DNA of 64,000 bases from Escherichia phage LH2, in sequence record OQ378934.1. One strand, given 5' to 3'. This document shows positions 23,394 through 34,405 of the stretch, piece after piece. The notes beneath the pieces are model-generated. The model was not told the DNA's origin, ran no database searches, and worked only from the letters and a program-made list of their open reading frames with translations. Numbering within the stretch: position 1 is the first letter of the stretch; every line of letters starts with the position of its first letter. The translations under genes and the position numbers were made by a program.

Positions 23394-24186
<793 letters not shown>

Positions 24187-24187
<1 letters not shown>

Positions 24188-24738
24188 TGAAACAATACCA
24201 ATTTTTAATTAAAGATATCCTGGAAAACGGTTATGAAACCGATGACCGAACAGGCACAGGAACAATTGCTTTGTTCGGTACTAAATTACGCTGGGATTTA
24301 ACTAAAGGTTTTCCTGCAGTAACGACTAAGAAGCTTGCCTGGAAAGCTTGCATTGCTGAGCTCCTTTGGTTTTTATCAGGAAGCACAAATGTTAATGATT
24401 TACGATTAATTCAACACGATTCATTAATTCAAGGCAAAACAGTCTGGGATGAAAATTACGAAAATCAAGCAAAAGATTTAGGATATCATAGCGGTGAACT
24501 TGGTCCAATTTATGGAAAACAGTGGCGTGATTTTGGCGGTGTAGACCAAATTGTAGAAGTTGTTGATCGTATTAAAAAACTGCCAAATGATAGACGTCAA
24601 ATTGTTTCAGCATGGAATCCGGCAGAACTCAAGCAGATGGCATTGCCACCTTGTCATATGTTCTATCAGTTTAATGTGCGTAATGGCTATTTGGATTTGC
24701 AGTGGTATCAACGATCAGTAGATGTTTTCTTGGGTTAA
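24187..24738 (+). CDS. td: thymidylate synthase, exon 1
   Basis: MKQYQFLIKDILENGYETDDRTGTGTIALFG… through …QRSVDVFLG, ending at the canonical td intron 5' splice site (exon ends ...TTGGGT); the listed ORF begins 12 nt upstream at a TTG. Confidence 0.95.
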
Positions 24739-25751
24739 TTTAGGCCTGAGTATAAGGTGACTTATACTTGTAATCTATCTAAACGGGGAACCTCTCTAGT
24801 AGACAATCCCGTGCTAAATTGTAGGACTACCCTTTAATAAATACTTCTATATTTAAAGAGGTATTTATGAAAAGTGGAATTTATCAGATTAAAAATACTT
24901 TAAACAATAAAGTATATGTAGGAAGTGCTAAAGATTTTGAAAAGAGATGGAAGAGGCATTTTAAAGACTTAGAAAAAGGATGCCATTCTTCTATAAAACT
25001 TCAAAGGTCTTTTAACAAACACGGTAATGTGTTTGAATGCTCTATTTTGGAAGAAATTCCATATGAGAAAGATTTGATTATTGAACGAGAAAATTTTTGG
25101 ATTAAAGAGCTTAATTCTAAAATTAATGGATACAATATTGCTGATGCAACGTTTGGTGATACATATTCTGTACATCCATTAAAAGAAGAAATTATTAAGA
25201 AACGCTCTGAAACTGTTAAAGTTAAGATGCTTAAGCTTGGCTCTGATGGTCGGAAAGCTCTTTACGGTAAACCCGGAAGCAAAAATGGGCGTTGGAATCC
25301 AGAAACCCATAAGTTTTGTGAATGTGGGGTTCGTATACAAACTTCTGCTTATACTTGTAGTAAATGCAGAAATCGTTCAGGTGAAAATAATTCATTCTTT
25401 AATCATAAGCATTCAGACAAAACTAAATCTAAAATATCAGAAAAAATGAAAGGTAAAAAGCCTAATAATATTAAAAAGATTTCATGTGATGGGATTATTT
25501 TTGAATGTGCAGCTGATGCAGCTAGATATTTTGAAATTTCATCCGGATTAGTTACTTACCGTGTAAAATCTGATAAGTGGAATTGGTTCTACATAAATGC
25601 CTAACGACTATCCCTTTAGGGAGTAGGGTCAAGTGACTCGAAACGATAGACAACTTGCTTTAGCAAGTTGGAGATATAGTCTGCTCTGCATGGTGACATG
25701 CAGCTGGATATAATTCCGGGATAAGATTAACGACCTTATCTGAACATAATG
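24739..25751 (+). mobile_element. td group I self-splicing intron (1013 nt) carrying the I-TevI gene
   Basis: Intron 5' sequence taatttaggcctgagtataaggtgacttatacttgtaatctatctaaacgggg and 3' end ...ctgaacataatG match the T4 td intron; the exon 1 and exon 2 reading frames join across it. Confidence 0.9.
24867..25604 (+). CDS. intron-encoded GIY-YIG homing endonuclease I-TevI
   Basis: 245-aa [38 protein letters not shown]… with GIY-YIG catalytic domain, zinc finger and C-terminal HTH; length and sequence match I-TevI. Confidence 0.95.
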   Translation: MKSGIYQIKNTLNNKVYVGSAKDFEKRWKRHFKDLEKGCHSSIKLQRSFNKHGNVFECSILEEIPYEKDLIIERENFWIKELNSKINGYNIADATFGDTYSVHPLKEEIIKKRSETVKVKMLKLGSDGRKALYGKPGSKNGRWNPETHKFCECGVRIQTSAYTCSKCRNRSGENNSFFNHKHSDKTKSKISEKMKGKKPNNIKKISCDGIIFECAADAARYFEISSGLVTYRVKSDKWNWFYINA

Positions 25752-26063
25752 CTTCCATTCAACATTGCCTCGTACGCTGCCTTGACGCATATTGTAGCTA
25801 AGATGTGTAATCTTATTCCAGGAGATTTGATATTTTCTGGTGGTAATACTCATATCTATATGAATCACGTAGAACAATGTAAAGAAATTTTACGTCGTGA
25901 ACCTATGGATTTATGTGAATTACAATTAAAATTTCCAGATGAATTTGATGAATGGGGCACAGAATCTCAGGTATTTTGGTTGAGTCAATTCGCAAAGCCA
26001 CATAATTTTGTTCTTAACAACTATGTATCTCATCCGCCAATTAAAGGAAAGATGGCGGTGTAA
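25752..26063 (+). CDS. td: thymidylate synthase, exon 2
   Basis: Continues LPFNIASYAALTHIVAKMCNLIPGDLIFSGGNTHIYMNHVEQ… to …VSHPPIKGKMAV; in frame with exon 1 after intron removal (287 aa total). Confidence 0.9.
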   Translation, partial: LPFNIASYAALTHIVAKMCNLIPGDLIFSGGNTHIYMNHVEQCKEILRREPMDLCELQLKFPDEFDEWGTESQVFWLSQFAKPHNFVLNNYVSHPPIKGKMAV

Positions 26064-26074
26064 TTTTAATTTAA

Positions 26075-26332
26075 TTGAGAGGATATATGATTTTACGATT
26101 TAAGGATACTTCTGGTGTCGTTCTTTTTACACTTCCTAATCCAAGTGAACTGGAAGTTCCAGGGCCAGAACAGCCTATTATCATTTATGGCAAAAAATAT
26201 TATACTCATAAAATGACTCGTGAGTATTTTGATAATAAAATTTCTACAGTTAAAACTTCTTCTGATTGTTATTATGATATTACTGTTTTAACGGAAAAAC
26301 AATATGACGAATGCAGAACTTTAGCAGTATAA
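26075..26332 (+). CDS. hypothetical protein (85 aa)
   Basis: ORF with gagagga RBS between td and nrdA; its last 12 nt overlap the convergent GIY-YIG gene. Confidence 0.5.
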
Positions 26333-27052
26333 ATATGATTCCCAGCAATCTAGAGCGCATCTTTTAGATATAAGTTTTCTGCTTATTCCGGTTTGACGCA
26401 CAGCTTCTGCTATTGTTGGATATTCTACCCCATCTATACTTACTCTTAGATGGGGTTTCTTTTTACCTCTTTGCGAGTCAGAAATTCGTTTTCTAACTTC
26501 ATTGGTATGTGTCTGTCCATAATATGGGTTATTGATGCCTTTCATATTAAGTGCAGCGTTTCTTTCTTGGAACTTTTTGCTTATTTCTATAGCACGATCT
26601 AACCCATAGTGTTCTTCTATAGTTTTACCTTTGATATCTCTAGGTCTACCATGTTTTTGCTTAAGTTCTTCTGGTGATAATTTTGAATTATTATTTTTAA
26701 TTGCATTTGAAATTTTATTAAGGATTTCTTTCTTTCTTGGGTGATGAGATAAGGTATCCCCAAACGATGCGTCTGCTATATTATACCCATTTTCCTTTGA
26801 GTCATATTCATGCATCCAATAATTTTCACGTTCAATAATGATAGATTTTTCGTATGGAAGTTCTTCTATGATTTTACATACGAAAGCATCTTTCCCATGC
26901 TTATTATAAGAACGCTGCAGCTTTATTGAATGATGATTTCCATTATCTAAATCTTTAAAGTGTCGTTTCCATCGTTCTTCAAAATTAATTGCACTTCCTA
27001 TATAGTGCTTATTGGTTTTAGTGTTTATAATAGCATATATTCCAGATTTCAT
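26321..27052 (-). CDS. free-standing GIY-YIG homing endonuclease (I-TevI-like, seg-type)
   Basis: 243-aa [38 protein letters not shown]… whose N-terminal ~95 aa closely parallel I-TevI; C-terminus has NUMOD3-like ([20 protein letters not shown]) and NUMOD1-like HTH ([24 protein letters not shown]) motifs. Confidence 0.85.
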
Positions 27053-27074
27053 TATATTCTCCTATATAAAATTA

Positions 27075-27082
27075 TATTTATA
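27075..27082 (-). promoter_or_regulatory. late promoter TATAAATA upstream of the free-standing GIY-YIG gene
   Basis: Plus-strand tatttata is TATAAATA on the - strand, about 23 nt upstream of the endonuclease start codon. Confidence 0.55.
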
Positions 27083-27107
27083 TGGGGTAACTTACTATAG
27101 AGGACTT

Positions 27108-29372
27108 ATGCAATTAATTAATGTTATCAAAAGTAGTGGTGTTTCTCAGAGCTTTGATCCACAAAAAATTATTAAAGTTTTATCTTGGGCAGCTGAAGGA
27201 ACATCTGTAGATCCTTATGAATTATATGAAAATATTAAATCATATCTCCGTGATGGAATGACCACTGATGACATTCAAACCATTGTAATTAAGGCTGCTG
27301 CGAATTCTATTTCAGTTGAAGAGCCTGATTATCAATACGTAGCTGCACGCTGTTTAATGTTTGCTCTTCGTAAGCATGTTTACGGGCAATATGAACCACG
27401 TTCATTTATTGACCATATTTCTTACTGCGTAAATGAAGGTAAATACGACCCTGAATTGTTGTCAAAATATTCTGCAGAAGAAATTACATTTTTAGAATCA
27501 AAAATTAAGCACGAGCGGGATATGGAATTTACTTATTCCGGGGCGATGCAATTAAAAGAAAAATATCTCGTTAAAGATAAAACCACTGGTCAAATTTATG
27601 AAACTCCACAGTTTGCATTTATGACTATTGGAATGGCATTGCATCAAGATGAACCTGTTGATAGACTAAAACACGTTATTCGTTTTTATGAAGCAGTATC
27701 TACTCGACAGATTTCATTACCAACTCCTATTATGGCTGGTTGCCGTACTCCAACTCGGCAGTTTAGTTCATGCGTTGTTATCGAGGCGGGTGATTCGCTG
27801 AAGTCTATCAACAAGGCTTCCGCTTCAATTGTTGAATATATCTCCAAACGCGCTGGAATTGGTATTAACGTTGGTATGATTCGTGCTGAAGGTTCTAAGA
27901 TTGGCACAGGTGAAGTACGTCATACTGGTGTTATTCCTTTTTGGAAACATTTTCAGACTGCTGTTAAATCATGCTCACAGGGTGGAATTCGTGGCGGCGC
28001 TGCTACTGCTTATTATCCTATTTGGCATTTGGAAGTTGAAAATCTTCTCGTTTTGAAAAATAACAAAGGTGTAGAAGAAAACCGTATCCGTCATATGGAT
28101 TATGGTGTTCAGCTGAATGACCTAATGATGGAACGATTCGGAAAGAACGATTACATTACTTTGTTTAGTCCGCATGAAATGGGTGGCGAGCTTTATTATT
28201 CTTATTTTAAAGACCAAGACCGTTTCCGCGAATTATACGAAGCAGCAGAAAAAGACCCTAATATTCGCAAAAAGCGTATTAAAGCCCGTGAACTATTTGA
28301 ATTACTCATGACTGAACGATCAGGAACAGCAAGGATTTATGTACAGTTCATTGATAATACGAATAACTATACTCCATTTATTCGTGAAAAGGCACCTATT
28401 CGTCAGAGTAACTTGTGTTGTGAAATTGCTATTCCAACAAATGATGTGAATAGTCCTGATGCTGAAATCGGATTGTGTACCCTTAGCGCATTTGTGTTGG
28501 ATAACTTCGATTGGCAAGACCAAGATAAAATTAATGAATTGGCAGAAGTCCAAGTTCGCGCTCTTGATAATCTTTTGGATTACCAAGGATATCCAGTTCC
28601 TGAAGCAGAAAAAGCTAAAAAGCGTCGAAATCTTGGTGTAGGTGTTACTAACTATGCAGCTTGGCTGGCAAGCAACTTTGCTTCTTATGAAGATGCTAAC
28701 GATTTAACACATGAACTATTTGAGAGACTACAGTATGGACTCATTAAAGCATCCATTAAGCTCGCCAAAGAAAAAGGACCTTGCGAATATTATTCAGACA
28801 CTCGTTGGTCTCGAGGCGAATTACCTATCGACTGGTACAATAAAAAGATTGACCAAATCGCAGCTCCAAAATACGTTTGTGACTGGTCGGCGCTGCGGGA
28901 AGACCTTAAGCTCTTTGGCATCCGTAATAGCACATTATCAGCACTTATGCCATGTGAGTCATCTTCCCAAGTTTCTAACAGTACAAACGGTATCGAGCCT
29001 CCACGTGGACCAGTCTCTGTTAAAGAGTCAAAAGAGGGTTCCTTTAATCAAGTCGTGCCCAATATTGAACATAACATAGACCTCTATGATTATACGTGGA
29101 AATTAGCTAAGAAAGGTAATAAACCTTATCTTACGCAGGTAGCTATTATGCTGAAATGGGTATGTCAATCAGCTTCAGCGAATACATATTATGACCCGCA
29201 GATTTTTCCAAAAGGAAAGGTTCCAATGTCTGTAATGATTGATGACATGCTATACGGATGGTATTATGGCATTAAAAACTTCTATTATCATAATACCCGC
29301 GATGGTTCTGGTACTGATGATTATGAAATAGAAACTCCAAAAGCTGAAGATTGTTCATCCTGTAAATTATGA
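27108..29372 (+). CDS. nrdA: aerobic ribonucleotide reductase large subunit NrdA
   Basis: 754-aa product from the MQLINVIKSSGVSQSFDPQKI start (T4 NrdA is 754 aa); ATP-cone N-terminus and class I RNR motifs. Confidence 0.95.
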   Translation: MQLINVIKSSGVSQSFDPQKIIKVLSWAAEGTSVDPYELYENIKSYLRDGMTTDDIQTIVIKAAANSISVEEPDYQYVAARCLMFALRKHVYGQYEPRSFIDHISYCVNEGKYDPELLSKYSAEEITFLESKIKHERDMEFTYSGAMQLKEKYLVKDKTTGQIYETPQFAFMTIGMALHQDEPVDRLKHVIRFYEAVSTRQISLPTPIMAGCRTPTRQFSSCVVIEAGDSLKSINKASASIVEYISKRAGIGINVGMIRAEGSKIGTGEVRHTGVIPFWKHFQTAVKSCSQGGIRGGAATAYYPIWHLEVENLLVLKNNKGVEENRIRHMDYGVQLNDLMMERFGKNDYITLFSPHEMGGELYYSYFKDQDRFRELYEAAEKDPNIRKKRIKARELFELLMTERSGTARIYVQFIDNTNNYTPFIREKAPIRQSNLCCEIAIPTNDVNSPDAEIGLCTLSAFVLDNFDWQDQDKINELAEVQVRALDNLLDYQGYPVPEAEKAKKRRNLGVGVTNYAAWLASNFASYEDANDLTHELFERLQYGLIKASIKLAKEKGPCEYYSDTRWSRGELPIDWYNKKIDQIAAPKYVCDWSALREDLKLFGIRNSTLSALMPCESSSQVSNSTNGIEPPRGPVSVKESKEGSFNQVVPNIEHNIDLYDYTWKLAKKGNKPYLTQVAIMLKWVCQSASANTYYDPQIFPKGKVPMSVMIDDMLYGWYYGIKNFYYHNTRDGSGTDDYEIETPKAEDCSSCKL

Positions 29373-29388
29373 TATAATTACCACAAGG

Positions 29389-30981
29389 ATGTGGTTAACT
29401 AAGAATAACGCTATGTTTGATAATATATACAAAAACGGAAAGTTTCTTCCATTTGGAGAAGAAAAACTTAAATCTAGACTAACAGAAGAAGATAAAGCTC
29501 TTCTAACTGATGGAATAGATTTTAAGCTCAATGTGTTCCAAATTATGGAAGGCATTGACATTAACGATCTAAAATGTGCAGTTTGTGGAAATTTCATTTC
29601 TCTGAAAACAGCAAAGAAACGTGTATTTCCAGCAACATGTAGTAAATCCTGCGCAGGGATATTTTTCGCGGATAAGAGAATTCAAAGCCGTGATACAAAT
29701 TTTGGCGGAAAAGAAAAATATAAAAAATATTTGTCTGAACTTCAACACAAAAATTCTTTAGAAAAATATGGAACAACTCATCAAAAAATTTCAAGAAATA
29801 AAAATAGAAAAACTTTAATTGAACGATATGGGGTAACGCATAATTCACAATTAGAAAGTGTGAAAGAAGCGAGAAAAGTTATAGAAAACGGTAAATCAGT
29901 TGATATTCTGCATTCTAGAAAATCTCGCGAAAAATCTAAGAAGACTAAATTAAATTGGACTAAAGAATATAAGGCATCGTTATATTCATCTATAGGAAAA
30001 TCTATTAAAAATAACGGTCATATTAATCATGATATACTAGATAAAATCAATTACAAAATTTCTATAGAAGAACTACAACAATTAGCAAATTGTTCTCGGA
30101 TGACGGCTTATAGAGCTCTTTCATCCAAAGGACTAATTGACGTTCATTATACTCAAAGTTCTATAGAGCAGTTCATTTTAGATCTAGGATTTGATTGCGT
30201 AGAAACTAGAAAAATTATTCCTCCGTATGAATTAGATATTTACATTCCTGAGAAAAAATTGGCTATAGAATACGATGGAATTTATTGGCATTCTAGCGGG
30301 TCAAAGGAAACAGATAAAATTAAAGAAACTTATCATTTGATGAAGACAGAGATGTGTGAAGCACAAGGAATTCAATTACTTCACATCTTCGAAAATGAAT
30401 GGATTGATGATACAAAAAGAGAGATCTGGAAATCCATTATAAAGCATAAATTAGGATTATCAGAAAGAATACCAGCCCGAAAATGCAAAGCACGGTTTGT
30501 TAATAAGGATGAGGCAAAAGAATTTATTAATAAGAATCATCTTCAAGGATTTTGCTCAGGAGCTCATACGTATAAAGGACTTTATTACAATAATGAGTTA
30601 GTTCAAATTATTTCTATCGGTAAATCTAGATATAGCTCAGGTGATGAACTTTTAAGGATGTGTTCAAAATTAGGGGTTTGTGTTGTAGGAGGAGCCTCAA
30701 AATTATTAAAAGGAATTAATTGTCTATCTTATGGCAATCGAAGATGGTGCAGTACATTATCAAATGTTTATGACTCTGTCATGGAATTTAGTCATATCTC
30801 TGAGCCATGTTATTGGTACGTCGATAAAGGAGAGGTATTTCACCGCTCAAGCTATATGAAACATAAGCTTAAAAACAAGCTTAAAAATTATGATGATACA
30901 ATAACTGAAGTAGAAAATTGTTATGCAAATGGTCTTAGAAGAATCTGGGACTGTGGAAATTTAGTTTACAGGACAAAATAA
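29389..30981 (+). CDS. putative free-standing homing endonuclease with Vsr-like PD-(D/E)xK nuclease motif (530 aa)
   Basis: Large AT-rich ORF filling the nrdA-nrdB gap; N-terminal Cys cluster (CAVCGNF…CSKSC), internal KYGTTH/RYGVTH repeats, and a central motif ELDIYIPEKKLAIEYDGIYWHS resembling the Vsr/DUF559 FxDGxxWH endonuclease signature. Confidence 0.55.
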   Translation: MWLTKNNAMFDNIYKNGKFLPFGEEKLKSRLTEEDKALLTDGIDFKLNVFQIMEGIDINDLKCAVCGNFISLKTAKKRVFPATCSKSCAGIFFADKRIQSRDTNFGGKEKYKKYLSELQHKNSLEKYGTTHQKISRNKNRKTLIERYGVTHNSQLESVKEARKVIENGKSVDILHSRKSREKSKKTKLNWTKEYKASLYSSIGKSIKNNGHINHDILDKINYKISIEELQQLANCSRMTAYRALSSKGLIDVHYTQSSIEQFILDLGFDCVETRKIIPPYELDIYIPEKKLAIEYDGIYWHSSGSKETDKIKETYHLMKTEMCEAQGIQLLHIFENEWIDDTKREIWKSIIKHKLGLSERIPARKCKARFVNKDEAKEFINKNHLQGFCSGAHTYKGLYYNNELVQIISIGKSRYSSGDELLRMCSKLGVCVVGGASKLLKGINCLSYGNRRWCSTLSNVYDSVMEFSHISEPCYWYVDKGEVFHRSSYMKHKLKNKLKNYDDTITEVENCYANGLRRIWDCGNLVYRTK

Positions 30982-31656
30982 TGAGTACAGTTTTTAATAC
31001 TAAACAGGTCGATGTTTTAAAAGAACCTATGTTTTTTGGTTCAGGTCTTGGTATTGCGCGTTATGATATTCAACGGCATCGAGTATTTGAAGAACTTATT
31101 GAACGTTCGCTCTCGTTTTTCTGGCGTCCGGAAGAAGTAAACTTGATGATGGATGCTGCACAGTTTAATAAGCTTCCTCAGTATCAACAAAATATTTTTA
31201 CTAATAATCTGAAGTATCAATCATTACTTGATAGTATTCAAGGTCGTGCGCCGTCTGCTGTACTTATGCCATTGCTTTCAGACCCAAGCCTTGATACATG
31301 GGTTGCTACATGGACTTTTAGTGAAACTATTCACAGTCGTTCATATACTCATATCATGCGAAATCTTTATACTGATCCGTCAAAGGTATTTGATGAGATT
31401 GTATTAGATGAAGCTATTATGAAACGCGCTGAATCCATTGGGCGTTATTATGATGATGTTCTGATTAAAACCCGTGAATGGGAAAATGCTAAAGAATTTG
31501 TAGAACTAGCTAAAGAATCTCCTGATGCCGACTTTCGTTTAAACCGAGCTATTAAACAAGAAGCCGAAGCTAAACGTGCTTTAATGAAATCTCTTTATCT
31601 CTGTTTGCACGTTATTAATGCCTTAGAAGCTATTCGTTTTTATGTATCTTTTGCGT
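30981..31656 (+). CDS. nrdB: ribonucleotide reductase small subunit NrdB, exon 1
   Basis: MSTVFNTKQVDVLKEPMFFGSGLGIARYD… to …EAIRFYVSFA; the frame is interrupted by a stop that is removed once the intron is excised. Confidence 0.9.
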
Positions 31657-32247
31657 AAAATGCGCCTTTAAACGGTAACGTTTATCGAAAACTCCTTTAA
31701 TTGCTGGAAAGTCCTTTATAGGAAAACTAGCAGCCAAGGTTTTGCTTGCACCTTTAATTAGTATAATATGATTATACTTTTAAGAGGATGCACAATTGAA
31801 CTATAGAAAAATTTGGATAGATGCTAACGGACCTACCTAAAGATTCTGATGGAAGACCATAAGAAAAGAACATCAGCAAAAACATTAGAAATGGTTAAGA
31901 ATGGGACCCATCCTGCACAAAAAGAAATCACATGTGATTTCTGCGGTCACATTGGTAAAGGTCCTGGATTTTATCTAAAACATAATGACAGATGTAAATT
32001 AAATCCAAATAGAATTCAATTGAATTGTCCATATTGTGATAAGAAAGATTTATCACCATCAACATATAAACGATGGCACGGCGACAATTGCAAAACAAGG
32101 TTCAACGACTAGTCTTCGGACGTAGGGTCAAGCGACTCGAAATGGGGAGAATCCCTCCGGGATTGTGATATAGTCTGGACTGCATGGTAACATGCAGCAG
32201 TTCATAAGAGAACGGGTTGAGAATTAGCGAGCTCAATCGAACATACG
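31657..32247 (+). mobile_element. nrdB group I intron (591 nt) with decayed homing endonuclease ORF
   Basis: Exon 1 ends in T and the intron ends in G (…acatacG|gtacc…), restoring codon TGT and the conserved NrdB junction FAC-TFNFH; size is close to the T4 nrdB intron. Confidence 0.8.
31849..32112 (+). pseudogene. I-TevIII-like endonuclease remnant (87-aa zinc-finger C-terminal fragment)
   Basis: Intron-internal ORF with CxxC…CxxC zinc-finger (CDFCGH…CPYCDKKD) but no HNH catalytic domain; consistent with a deleted I-TevIII. Confidence 0.55.
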
Positions 32248-32750
32248 GTACCTTTAACTTCCACAAAAACATGGAAATCATGGAAGGTAATGCCAAGATT
32301 ATGAAGTTCATTGCTCGTGATGAGCAGCTTCACCTTAAAGGCACTCAATATATTATTCGTCAACTTCAATCCGGTACTGATGGCGATGAATGGGTTAAAA
32401 TTGCTCAAGAGTGTGAACAAGAAGCAGTTGATATTTTCATGGAAGTTAACCGCCAAGAAAAAGATTGGGCAGTTCATTTATTTAAAGATGGCGATGTTCC
32501 TGGATTAAATACAAATAGCATGTGGAGCTTTATTGATTACTTAACTGTATCTCGTATGAAACAGTGTGGTCTTCCATGTCCAATTACCGATGCTCCGGTT
32601 AAACATCCATATCCTTGGATTCGTGAATATCTTAATTCTGATAATGTTCAATCCGCGCCACAAGAAGTAGAACTTTCATCTTACCTTGTAGCACAGATTG
32701 ATAATGATGTTGATGATAAAGTTATGATGAGTTTTAAAAAATATTTTTAA
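32248..32750 (+). CDS. nrdB: ribonucleotide reductase small subunit NrdB, exon 2
   Basis: …TFNFHKNMEIMEGNAKIMKFIARDEQLHLKGTQ… in frame with exon 1 after splicing (392 aa total). Confidence 0.9.
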
Positions 32751-32777
32751 GGAGTGGGCCGCAAGGCCCATTTTATT

Positions 32778-34405
<1,628 letters not shown>

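Follow-up and report, generated by a model that had tools for sequence, protein, structure and literature searches.

Escherichia phage LH2 (OQ378934.1) carries one large ORF in the gap between nrdA and nrdB, and the locus raises the questions of which gene this is and what the separate parts of its product do. A reading made from the letters alone (the sequence-only reading) of the 64,000-nt stretch analysed here, referred to below as the window, had described an AT-rich ORF of 530 codons filling a gap that in T4 is the site of mobE, and had taken it for a Vsr/DUF559-type homing endonuclease of the EDxHD kind, either a replacement or a distinct nuclease, whose last ~160 aa had no assignable function. 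We conclude that the ORF at 29389..30981 is hef, a free-standing gene for a homing endonuclease that was originally reported from phage U5. The probability that we attach to this explanation, about 0.88, is that of the whole (Hef identity, modules, and homing together) and not of its parts. The hef gene, its locus, its homing-endonuclease activity, and the Vsr-like class of its nuclease have all been published already. Our own data establish the gene identity, the folds, the residue conservation, and the population pattern; what they add is confirmation of the fold guess, refutation of the new-nuclease idea, and an assignment for the C-terminus. The features of the locus are:

27108..29372, + strand: nrdA, the upstream flank
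29380..30980, no strand assigned: approximate extent of the hef insertion, from alignment with the empty-site phages T2 and ES21
29389..30981, + strand: hef coding sequence, 530 aa from the ATG at 29389, from the ORF and its near-identity to U5 hef
29575..29652, + strand: four-Cys cluster (C63, C66, C84, C88), a putative zinc ribbon
29710..30018, + strand: helical KYGxxH repeat region, DUF7487-like, including KYGTTH and RYGVTH
30052..30126, + strand: helix-turn-helix-like segment, aa 222-246 (tentative)
30142..30456, + strand: Vsr-like EDxHD-type nuclease domain, aa ~252-356
30229..30294, + strand: motif ELDIYIPEKKLAIEYDGIYWHS, aa 281-302
30460..30978, + strand: Mom-like GNAT domain, aa ~358-530, with key residues H384, R423, G434-G435-A436-S437, N450, R452, and Y461
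30981..31654, + strand: nrdB exon 1, the reported Hef target gene, whose first ~260 nt are the hef-linked haplotype
31655..32247, + strand: nrdB group I intron (boundaries ±2 nt), from colinearity (92.9% identity) with the intron-containing nrdB of T4
31849..32112: defective I-TevIII ORF inside the nrdB intron
32248..32750, + strand: nrdB exon 2

Identity of the ORF between nrdA and nrdB

The 530-codon ORF is present at 29389..30981 and fills the gap, as the sequence-only reading had it, and its AT-richness was borne out by a GC content of 31.1%, compared to 38.1% in nrdA, 36.4% in nrdB exon 1, and 36.0% in the whole window. At the composition of the ORF itself, the probability of meeting no stop in 530 codons is ~6e-22. 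The TAA stop of hef (30979-30981) shares one base with the ATG of nrdB at 30981 (TAATG). Megablast found the full-length ORF in 16 phage records, each at an identity of at least 99%, and the U5 record (AY262133.2) annotates it as "hef: Hef, homing endonuclease" between nrdA and nrdB. The LH2 ORF and U5 hef are 99.4% identical in nucleotide sequence, and their proteins share 526/530 aa without gaps. Moreover, PHROG 3339, "homing endonuclease", matches the ORF with an E of 3e-151, and in PADLOC only the generic "HEase" model matched. According to a review, phage U5 Hef cleaves nrdB (PMC2988022), and the "EDxHD" Vsr-like family that Taylor et al. 2011 defined around I-Bth0305I includes the "bacteriophage Hef type homing endonucleases" (PMC3239194).

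These results dispose of the proposal that a novel nuclease distinct from Hef had replaced mobE. T4 mobE does occupy the same nrdA-nrdB gap, and the proposal drew on two observations that hold: the Pfam scan of Hef contained no HNH family, and BLASTP against T4 MobE, as had been suggested, gave an E of only 0.94. U5 Hef, in contrast, shares 526/530 residues and the same locus with the ORF, which refutes the proposal and leaves it with practically no weight. The sequence-only reading was thus right about a Vsr/EDxHD homing endonuclease that lacks HNH and wrong about novelty, since the gene is the known hef. The label "HNH endonuclease" that PHROG 559 puts on Hef was without support from any HNH match. 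We ruled out that hef is a decayed pseudogene, since the reading frame is unbroken and 16 records have it at an identity of at least 99%.

The conserved start of hef is probably the ATG at 29413 (M9, MFDNIYKNG...), which would give 522 aa. The residues MFDNI... come first in homologues P0004 and P0010 and in the SG1 annotation, and two further homologues (P0002 and P0003) of 521-522 aa match from query residue 9, consistent with a start at M9. Residues 1-6 are the sole low-confidence part of the AF2 model, and the upstream ATG annotated for U5 hef is missing in the LH2 window owing to a SNP. Promoter and terminator scans around hef gave only background levels, no T4 late-promoter motif was found near hef, and the 64-kb window contains no further Hef-like copy.

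Sequence common to LH2 and the empty-site phages runs on the left up to TGATATAATT and on the right from ATGAG, and the hef insertion takes the place of the intergenic sequence between TGATATAATT and the nrdB ATG. The nrdB intron downstream is absent from phages N2 and T2. Introns in the window were inferred because the sequence is colinear with T4; Rfam over 23500..33500 returned no group I intron at gathering score.

Three modules of the Hef protein

The centre of Hef has a Vsr-type nuclease fold. Profiles and structures were needed to see this, because Pfam and NCBIfam searches with the single Hef protein gave sub-threshold nuclease matches or none; the Pfam matches to Hef alone, below gathering score, were MTES_1575 REase (E 1.7e-4) and DUF559 (E 0.011). 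Over 56 homologues, Pfam matched MTES_1575 in 29, Vsr in 3, and DUF559 in 3. The sole PDB match by sequence was I-Bth0305I (3r3p), with an E of 0.029 for the single sequence that improved to 1.9e-5 with a 29-sequence domain profile. For the nuclease domain, values of 11.2, 10.8, and 10.6 were obtained with Vsr (1cw0), the DUF559-like 3hrl, and I-Bth0305I (3r3p), respectively. The motif ELDIYIPEKKLAIEYDGIYWHS is present at aa 281-302, as had been noticed, and its D283 and H301 are invariant among the 56 homologues and align with D196 and H213 of I-Bth0305I (D51 and H69 of Vsr). The structure and profile searches that the sequence-only reading had suggested therefore confirmed its assignment of the centre to the Vsr/DUF559-type, EDxHD class, and they also matched the C-terminus to Mom. 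By analogy with Vsr and I-Bth0305I, D283 would bind the metal and H301 would act as general base.

In the profile alignment, Q256 of LH2 Hef falls at the first Glu of the EDxHD signature (I-Bth0305I E170, Vsr E25). Many Hef relatives have Glu at this position, and in LH2 Hef E260 lies one helical turn further on. This Glu was described as merely a possible participant in catalysis (Taylor et al., PMC3239194). As to the last Asp of the signature, D222 of I-Bth0305I (Vsr D97), D309 is kept in most relatives and falls, depending on the alignment, 1-2 positions off it.

N-terminal to the nuclease, the Cys cluster and the KYGTTH and RYGVTH repeats picked out from the sequence are both real. C63, C66, C84, and C88 are each kept in at least 90% of the 56 homologues, and Hef relatives match the zinc-finger families DUF4379 and YacG. 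The repeats lie at aa ~126-131 and ~146-151; Pfam DUF7487 matches 27/56 homologues (best E 2e-28), and the AF2 model is helical across the repeat region. The helix-turn-helix-like segment that follows had weak Pfam matches (HTH_11, E 0.13; UPF0175, E 0.1) and is modelled with helices at 226-233 and 237-246. Together, the zinc ribbon, DUF7487 repeats, and helix-turn-helix-like segment form a predicted DNA-binding region that may set target specificity.

The C-terminus, to which no function had been assignable, is a GNAT domain whose closest solved relative is Mom of phage Mu. The AF2 model of full-length Hef is confident (pLDDT 93.3; pTM 0.62). In Foldseek searches, the top PDB match of this domain was Mu Mom (8bv8; E 2.5e-6), with generic GNAT acetyltransferases ~1000-fold behind. 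The Pfam Mom model PF25680 matched 13/56 relatives at E < 0.01 and at the equivalent position (best E 3.9e-8), and found no match in LH2 Hef itself even at E ≤ 1. An hhalign comparison of a 121-sequence domain profile with a Mom-family profile gave 90.5% probability and an E of 1.3e-6 over 127 columns. Against the single Mu Mom sequence, the Hef C-terminal profile scored weakly (hhalign P 0.033; hmmsearch E 0.0036).

The hhalign match is convincing only in profile-profile form.

Silva et al. 2026 showed that Mom moves glycine from Gly-tRNAGly onto adenine N6 in double-stranded DNA, that a flipped dA is the acceptor, and that R111, S124, and R151 are essential and H58, Y59, D149, and Y159 important, with activity strongly reduced in D149A and Y59A (PMC13219725). 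We counted the equivalent residues in 121 homologues, whose median identity in the Mom-like domain is only 50%. The equivalents of Mom H58 (Hef H384; 119/121), R111 (R423; 120/121), R151 (R452; 121/121), and Y159 (Y461; 119/121) are nearly invariant. The position of D149 (N450) has Asn in 92/121 and Asp in 29/121, and that of Y59 (L385) has Leu in 115/121. The equivalent of S124 may be S437 (119/121), in an alignment that is ambiguous here, where a GGAS loop lies at the GNAT cofactor-binding position. In addition, helices inserted ahead of the last strands (aa ~486-513) have a parallel in the essential HTH-like insertion of Mom.

Literature searches tying Hef to Mom, GNAT, or acetyltransferase found nothing, including any connection of the U5/T4-type Hef with Mom; one GenBank record names a Hef relative "putative nuclease/acetyltransferase". 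Iyer et al. 2021 noted that jumbo phages have Mom-nuclease fusions, which they interpreted as restriction-modification-like, and mentioned five such enzymes in PA5oct (PMC7824862). By tblastn, PA5oct has five Hef-like places, which are annotated "Hef-like homing endonuclease". The "Hef-like homing endonuclease" and "Mom-REase" literatures seem to have given two names to one architecture.

Distribution of hef and the pattern in nrdB

Hef-like sequences were found at 959 places in 407 phage records, and a single Campylobacter phage genome can hold as many as 10-11 copies. The conserved core spans aa ~255-530, and the N-termini vary among DUF7487, DUF723, and zinc-finger families. The C-terminal domain alone matched 12,954 cluster representatives at E ≤ 1e-3; in the best 150 of these, it is almost always C-terminal, in proteins of 450-800 aa. 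An orthologue in phage Acj9 (50% aa identity, same N-terminus) also lies in the nrdA-nrdB gap, and a paralogue in coliphage RPN226 (43%, different N-terminus) lies between the gp24 and gp23 capsid genes. This modularity and scatter are the usual pattern of homing endonucleases.

At nrdA-nrdB, hef is present in ~16 of the 824 T4-like records that match the flanks (~2%). Most T4-like records have an empty junction of ~50 nt, some carry different endonuclease genes, and the T4 gap holds mobE plus nrdB.1. A free-standing gene with this presence/absence polymorphism has the context of a mobile element. In 200-nt windows, identity among eight hef+ genomes is 98.6-99.8% for hef and 93.6-99.4% for nrdA, and in nrdA the hef+ genomes are no nearer to one another than to hef− genomes. 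Over 11 loci, with only three hef− references (T4, T2, and ES21) and "fixed" meaning that the two groups have no base in common, nrdB exon 1 has 16 fixed differences, of which 15 fall within the first ~260 nt, compared to none over the 2265 nt of nrdA. Through one of these differences, residues 8-9 of NrdB are KQ in the hef+ genomes and NP in the hef− ones. When the first 300 nt of nrdB were compared in 513 records, the 14 best matches to the window (92-100%) were all hef+. The hef+ phages U5 and Manna match by only ~91% at the nrdB 5' end, so that the haplotype linkage is not absolute. The pattern in nrdB fits co-conversion of a variable nrdB tract along with hef and agrees with cleavage on the nrdB side.

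Proposed function and known systems

We propose that Hef would work through its N-terminal DNA-binding region, its Vsr-like EDxHD nuclease, and its C-terminal Mom-like GNAT domain. In a mixed infection, Hef would cut the nrdB region of phages that lack hef, and recombinational repair off the hef+ genome would copy hef into the recipient along with the neighbouring 5' portion of nrdB. The Mom-like domain may engage an adenine at or near the target, by base flipping or N6 modification, alongside the nuclease. The nrdB cleavage step is taken from the literature, and the roles of the DNA-binding region and Mom-like domain are those that we infer. The Mom-like domain is always coupled to the Hef nuclease subfamily, and we think that it is not a passive appendage.

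A homing endonuclease with a catalytically dead Mom-like domain that serves only for DNA binding, DNA bending, or dimerisation is a distinct possibility, which we would nonetheless not call probable. Substitutions at the positions of D149 (Asn in 92/121) and Y59 (Leu in 115/121) point this way, given the strong loss of Mom activity in D149A and Y59A (PMC13219725), as do the sub-threshold Pfam Mom score of LH2 Hef, the ambiguous alignment near S124, and the fact that we came across no account of modified adenine in hef+ phages of the T4 type. However, the equivalents of R111, R151, H58, and Y159 and the GGAS loop are 98-100% conserved at a median identity of 50%, and Asp is kept at the D149 position in 29/121; this is a pattern seen more often in active sites than in scaffolds. 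The same conservation of R111, R151, H58, and Y159 would fit an active nucleic-acid-modifying enzyme that transfers, for example, an aminoacyl group from tRNA to adenine N6 at or near the target, conferring modification-based immunity or marking repaired sites. Mom is the nearest solved structure, and its chemistry is defined: Gly-tRNAGly donates and a flipped dA accepts the group (PMC13219725). Yet most members carry the Asn and Leu substitutions, and a modifier acting in trans would shield donor and recipient genomes alike, and we consider this activity rather unlikely. In 2005, Sandegren et al. reportedly found that Hef cuts both hef+ and hef− DNA in vitro, the site in its own genome included, and such self-cutting would leave room for an immunity that is not based on sequence.

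Another reading turns Hef into a single-chain, restriction-modification-like weapon, in which the Mom domain marks the adenines of its own genome and the nuclease attacks unmodified DNA of the host or of a superinfecting phage, with homing secondary or absent. This was predicted in print for the identical architecture (PMC7824862), and the "five momylating enzymes" of PA5oct match the five Hef-like places in that genome; the near-invariant equivalents of the Mom catalytic residues also speak for it. Nevertheless, the nuclease-Mom core is joined to many N-terminal DNA-binding regions at different loci and reaches 10-11 paralogues per genome, and the gene sits at a classical hotspot of endonuclease genes in only ~2% of T4-like phages, linked to a co-conversion-like tract in nrdB. 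Moreover, the reported cleavage by U5 Hef lies beside the hef gene itself, and a diffusible modifier cannot distinguish two genomes in a co-infected cell. We regard a weapon of this kind as improbable, and we retain homing as the function of Hef.

A further conjecture, which we hold to be doubtful, is that Hef-type endonucleases are bifunctional, in that an invariably fused, active GNAT domain would covalently modify adenine at or near the homing site, perhaps with an aminoacyl-tRNA as donor like Mom, and cleavage would be coupled to modification for immunity, marking, or substrate distortion. If true, this would make Hef the first homing endonuclease to contain a DNA hypermodification activity of its own, and the "Hef-like homing endonuclease" and "Mom-REase restriction-modification" readings would be reconciled. 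Hef is an experimentally validated homing endonuclease, and the putative active site of its Mom-like domain is well conserved. The chemistry of Mom is recent (preprint 2023, paper 2026), so DNA modification by widespread phage endonucleases is now directly testable.

Among known systems, T4 MobE resembles Hef in occupying the same nrdA-nrdB gap and in having nrdB as its reported target, but it is a 141-aa HNH protein of no detectable similarity to Hef (BLASTP E 0.94). E. coli Vsr (1CW0/1VSR), a nickase of T:G mismatch repair, has a zinc site and intercalating Trp residues and, unlike Hef, is not mobile and has no accessory domains. In I-Bth0305I (PDB 3R3P), D196 and H213 align with Hef D283 and H301, whereas Glu170 aligns with Hef Q256. 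I-Bth0305I further differs in being an intron-encoded protein of 266 aa with a C-terminal nuclease domain and no Mom-like domain, and in an N-terminus of NUMOD motifs plus HTH, where Hef has a zinc ribbon plus DUF7487.

The jumbo-phage Mom-REase fusions have the same two-domain core, and the five copies in PA5oct are Hef-like; they were read as restriction-modification-like, whereas U5 Hef has experimental homing-endonuclease data, and the T4/U5-type Hef is undiscussed in that paper, in which "Vsr" has 0 occurrences (PMC7824862). Mu Mom (PDB 8BV8; PF25680) shares with Hef the equivalents of H58, R111, R151, and Y159 and a helical insertion before the last strands. In contrast to the Mom-like domain of Hef, which is fused to a nuclease, Mu Mom stands alone; the identity is only 19-20%, D149 is Asn and Y59 is Leu in most Hef members, and there is no apparent Com-type regulation of Hef. 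Mu Mom modifies adenine, which no Hef is known to do.

The nrdB intron of U5 is ~475 nt longer than that of the window, which has the T4-type truncated copy, and we take these extra ~475 nt to be a full-length I-TevIII ORF. The U5 nrdB 5' end is 91.7% identical to that of the window. U5 Hef (AY262133.2) differs from LH2 Hef by four substitutions and by an upstream ATG that the window does not have, and is otherwise the same protein, alike at 526/530 aa, in the same position between nrdA and nrdB, and with the same one-base stop/start overlap.

Mobile elements across td-nrdA-nrdB

The td-nrdA-nrdB stretch is a mosaic in which selfish elements segregate independently. Among the phages carrying the homing-endonuclease gene hef at loci L002 and L004-L009, three mobile elements near hef vary from phage to phage, namely the td intron with I-TevI, the nrdB intron, and an extra GIY-YIG gene. 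The following features were located in the window:

24867..25604, + strand: full-length I-TevI ORF (245 aa), within the split td gene
~25749..26063: td exon 2, following the I-TevI ORF-bearing interruption of td
26321..27052, - strand: free-standing GIY-YIG gene (243 aa), 45% identical to I-TevI over its full length
27075..27082, - strand: T4 late-promoter motif TATAAATA, 23 nt upstream of the GIY-YIG gene start
31001..31007: non-synonymous difference at NrdB residues 8-9, lying 20-26 nt beyond the end of hef
31655..32247: T4-type group I intron of nrdB
31849..32112: truncated (defective) I-TevIII ORF inside the nrdB intron

Across 23500..33500, Rfam detected no group I intron at gathering score. 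The 243-aa GIY-YIG gene, which lies at the position of nrdA.1 and nrdA.2 in T4, is present in 26 phage records, from coliphages and Klebsiella T4-like phages. The nrdB intron and hef likewise assort independently, because nrdB of the hef-containing phage N2 has no intron and the U5 intron is ≈475 nt longer than that of the window.

The start of hef and the start of NrdB

Three different hef starts are in use across database annotations. AAGG directly precedes ATG 29389, the start of the 530-aa reading, which leaves nearly no spacing for a Shine-Dalgarno interaction; in hef homologues, the start codon corresponds to ATG 29413 (M9). Beyond the hef stop, each of the eight hef-containing genomes examined encodes Lys-Gln at NrdB residues 8-9, where T4, T2, and ES21 have Asn-Pro. 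The site of Hef recognition or immunity may include this difference.

The family label of Hef and the DNA of its carriers

PHROG 559, which carries the label 'HNH endonuclease', aligns with residues 61-528 of Hef (E 3e-77). Despite this label, no HNH domain was detectable in Hef, and the family name appears to be a misannotation, one that could propagate. Carriers of Hef-like genes include phages whose DNA contains unusual bases, namely T-even phages (hmC), Bacillus PBS1 (dU), and Campylobacter phages in which G is replaced.
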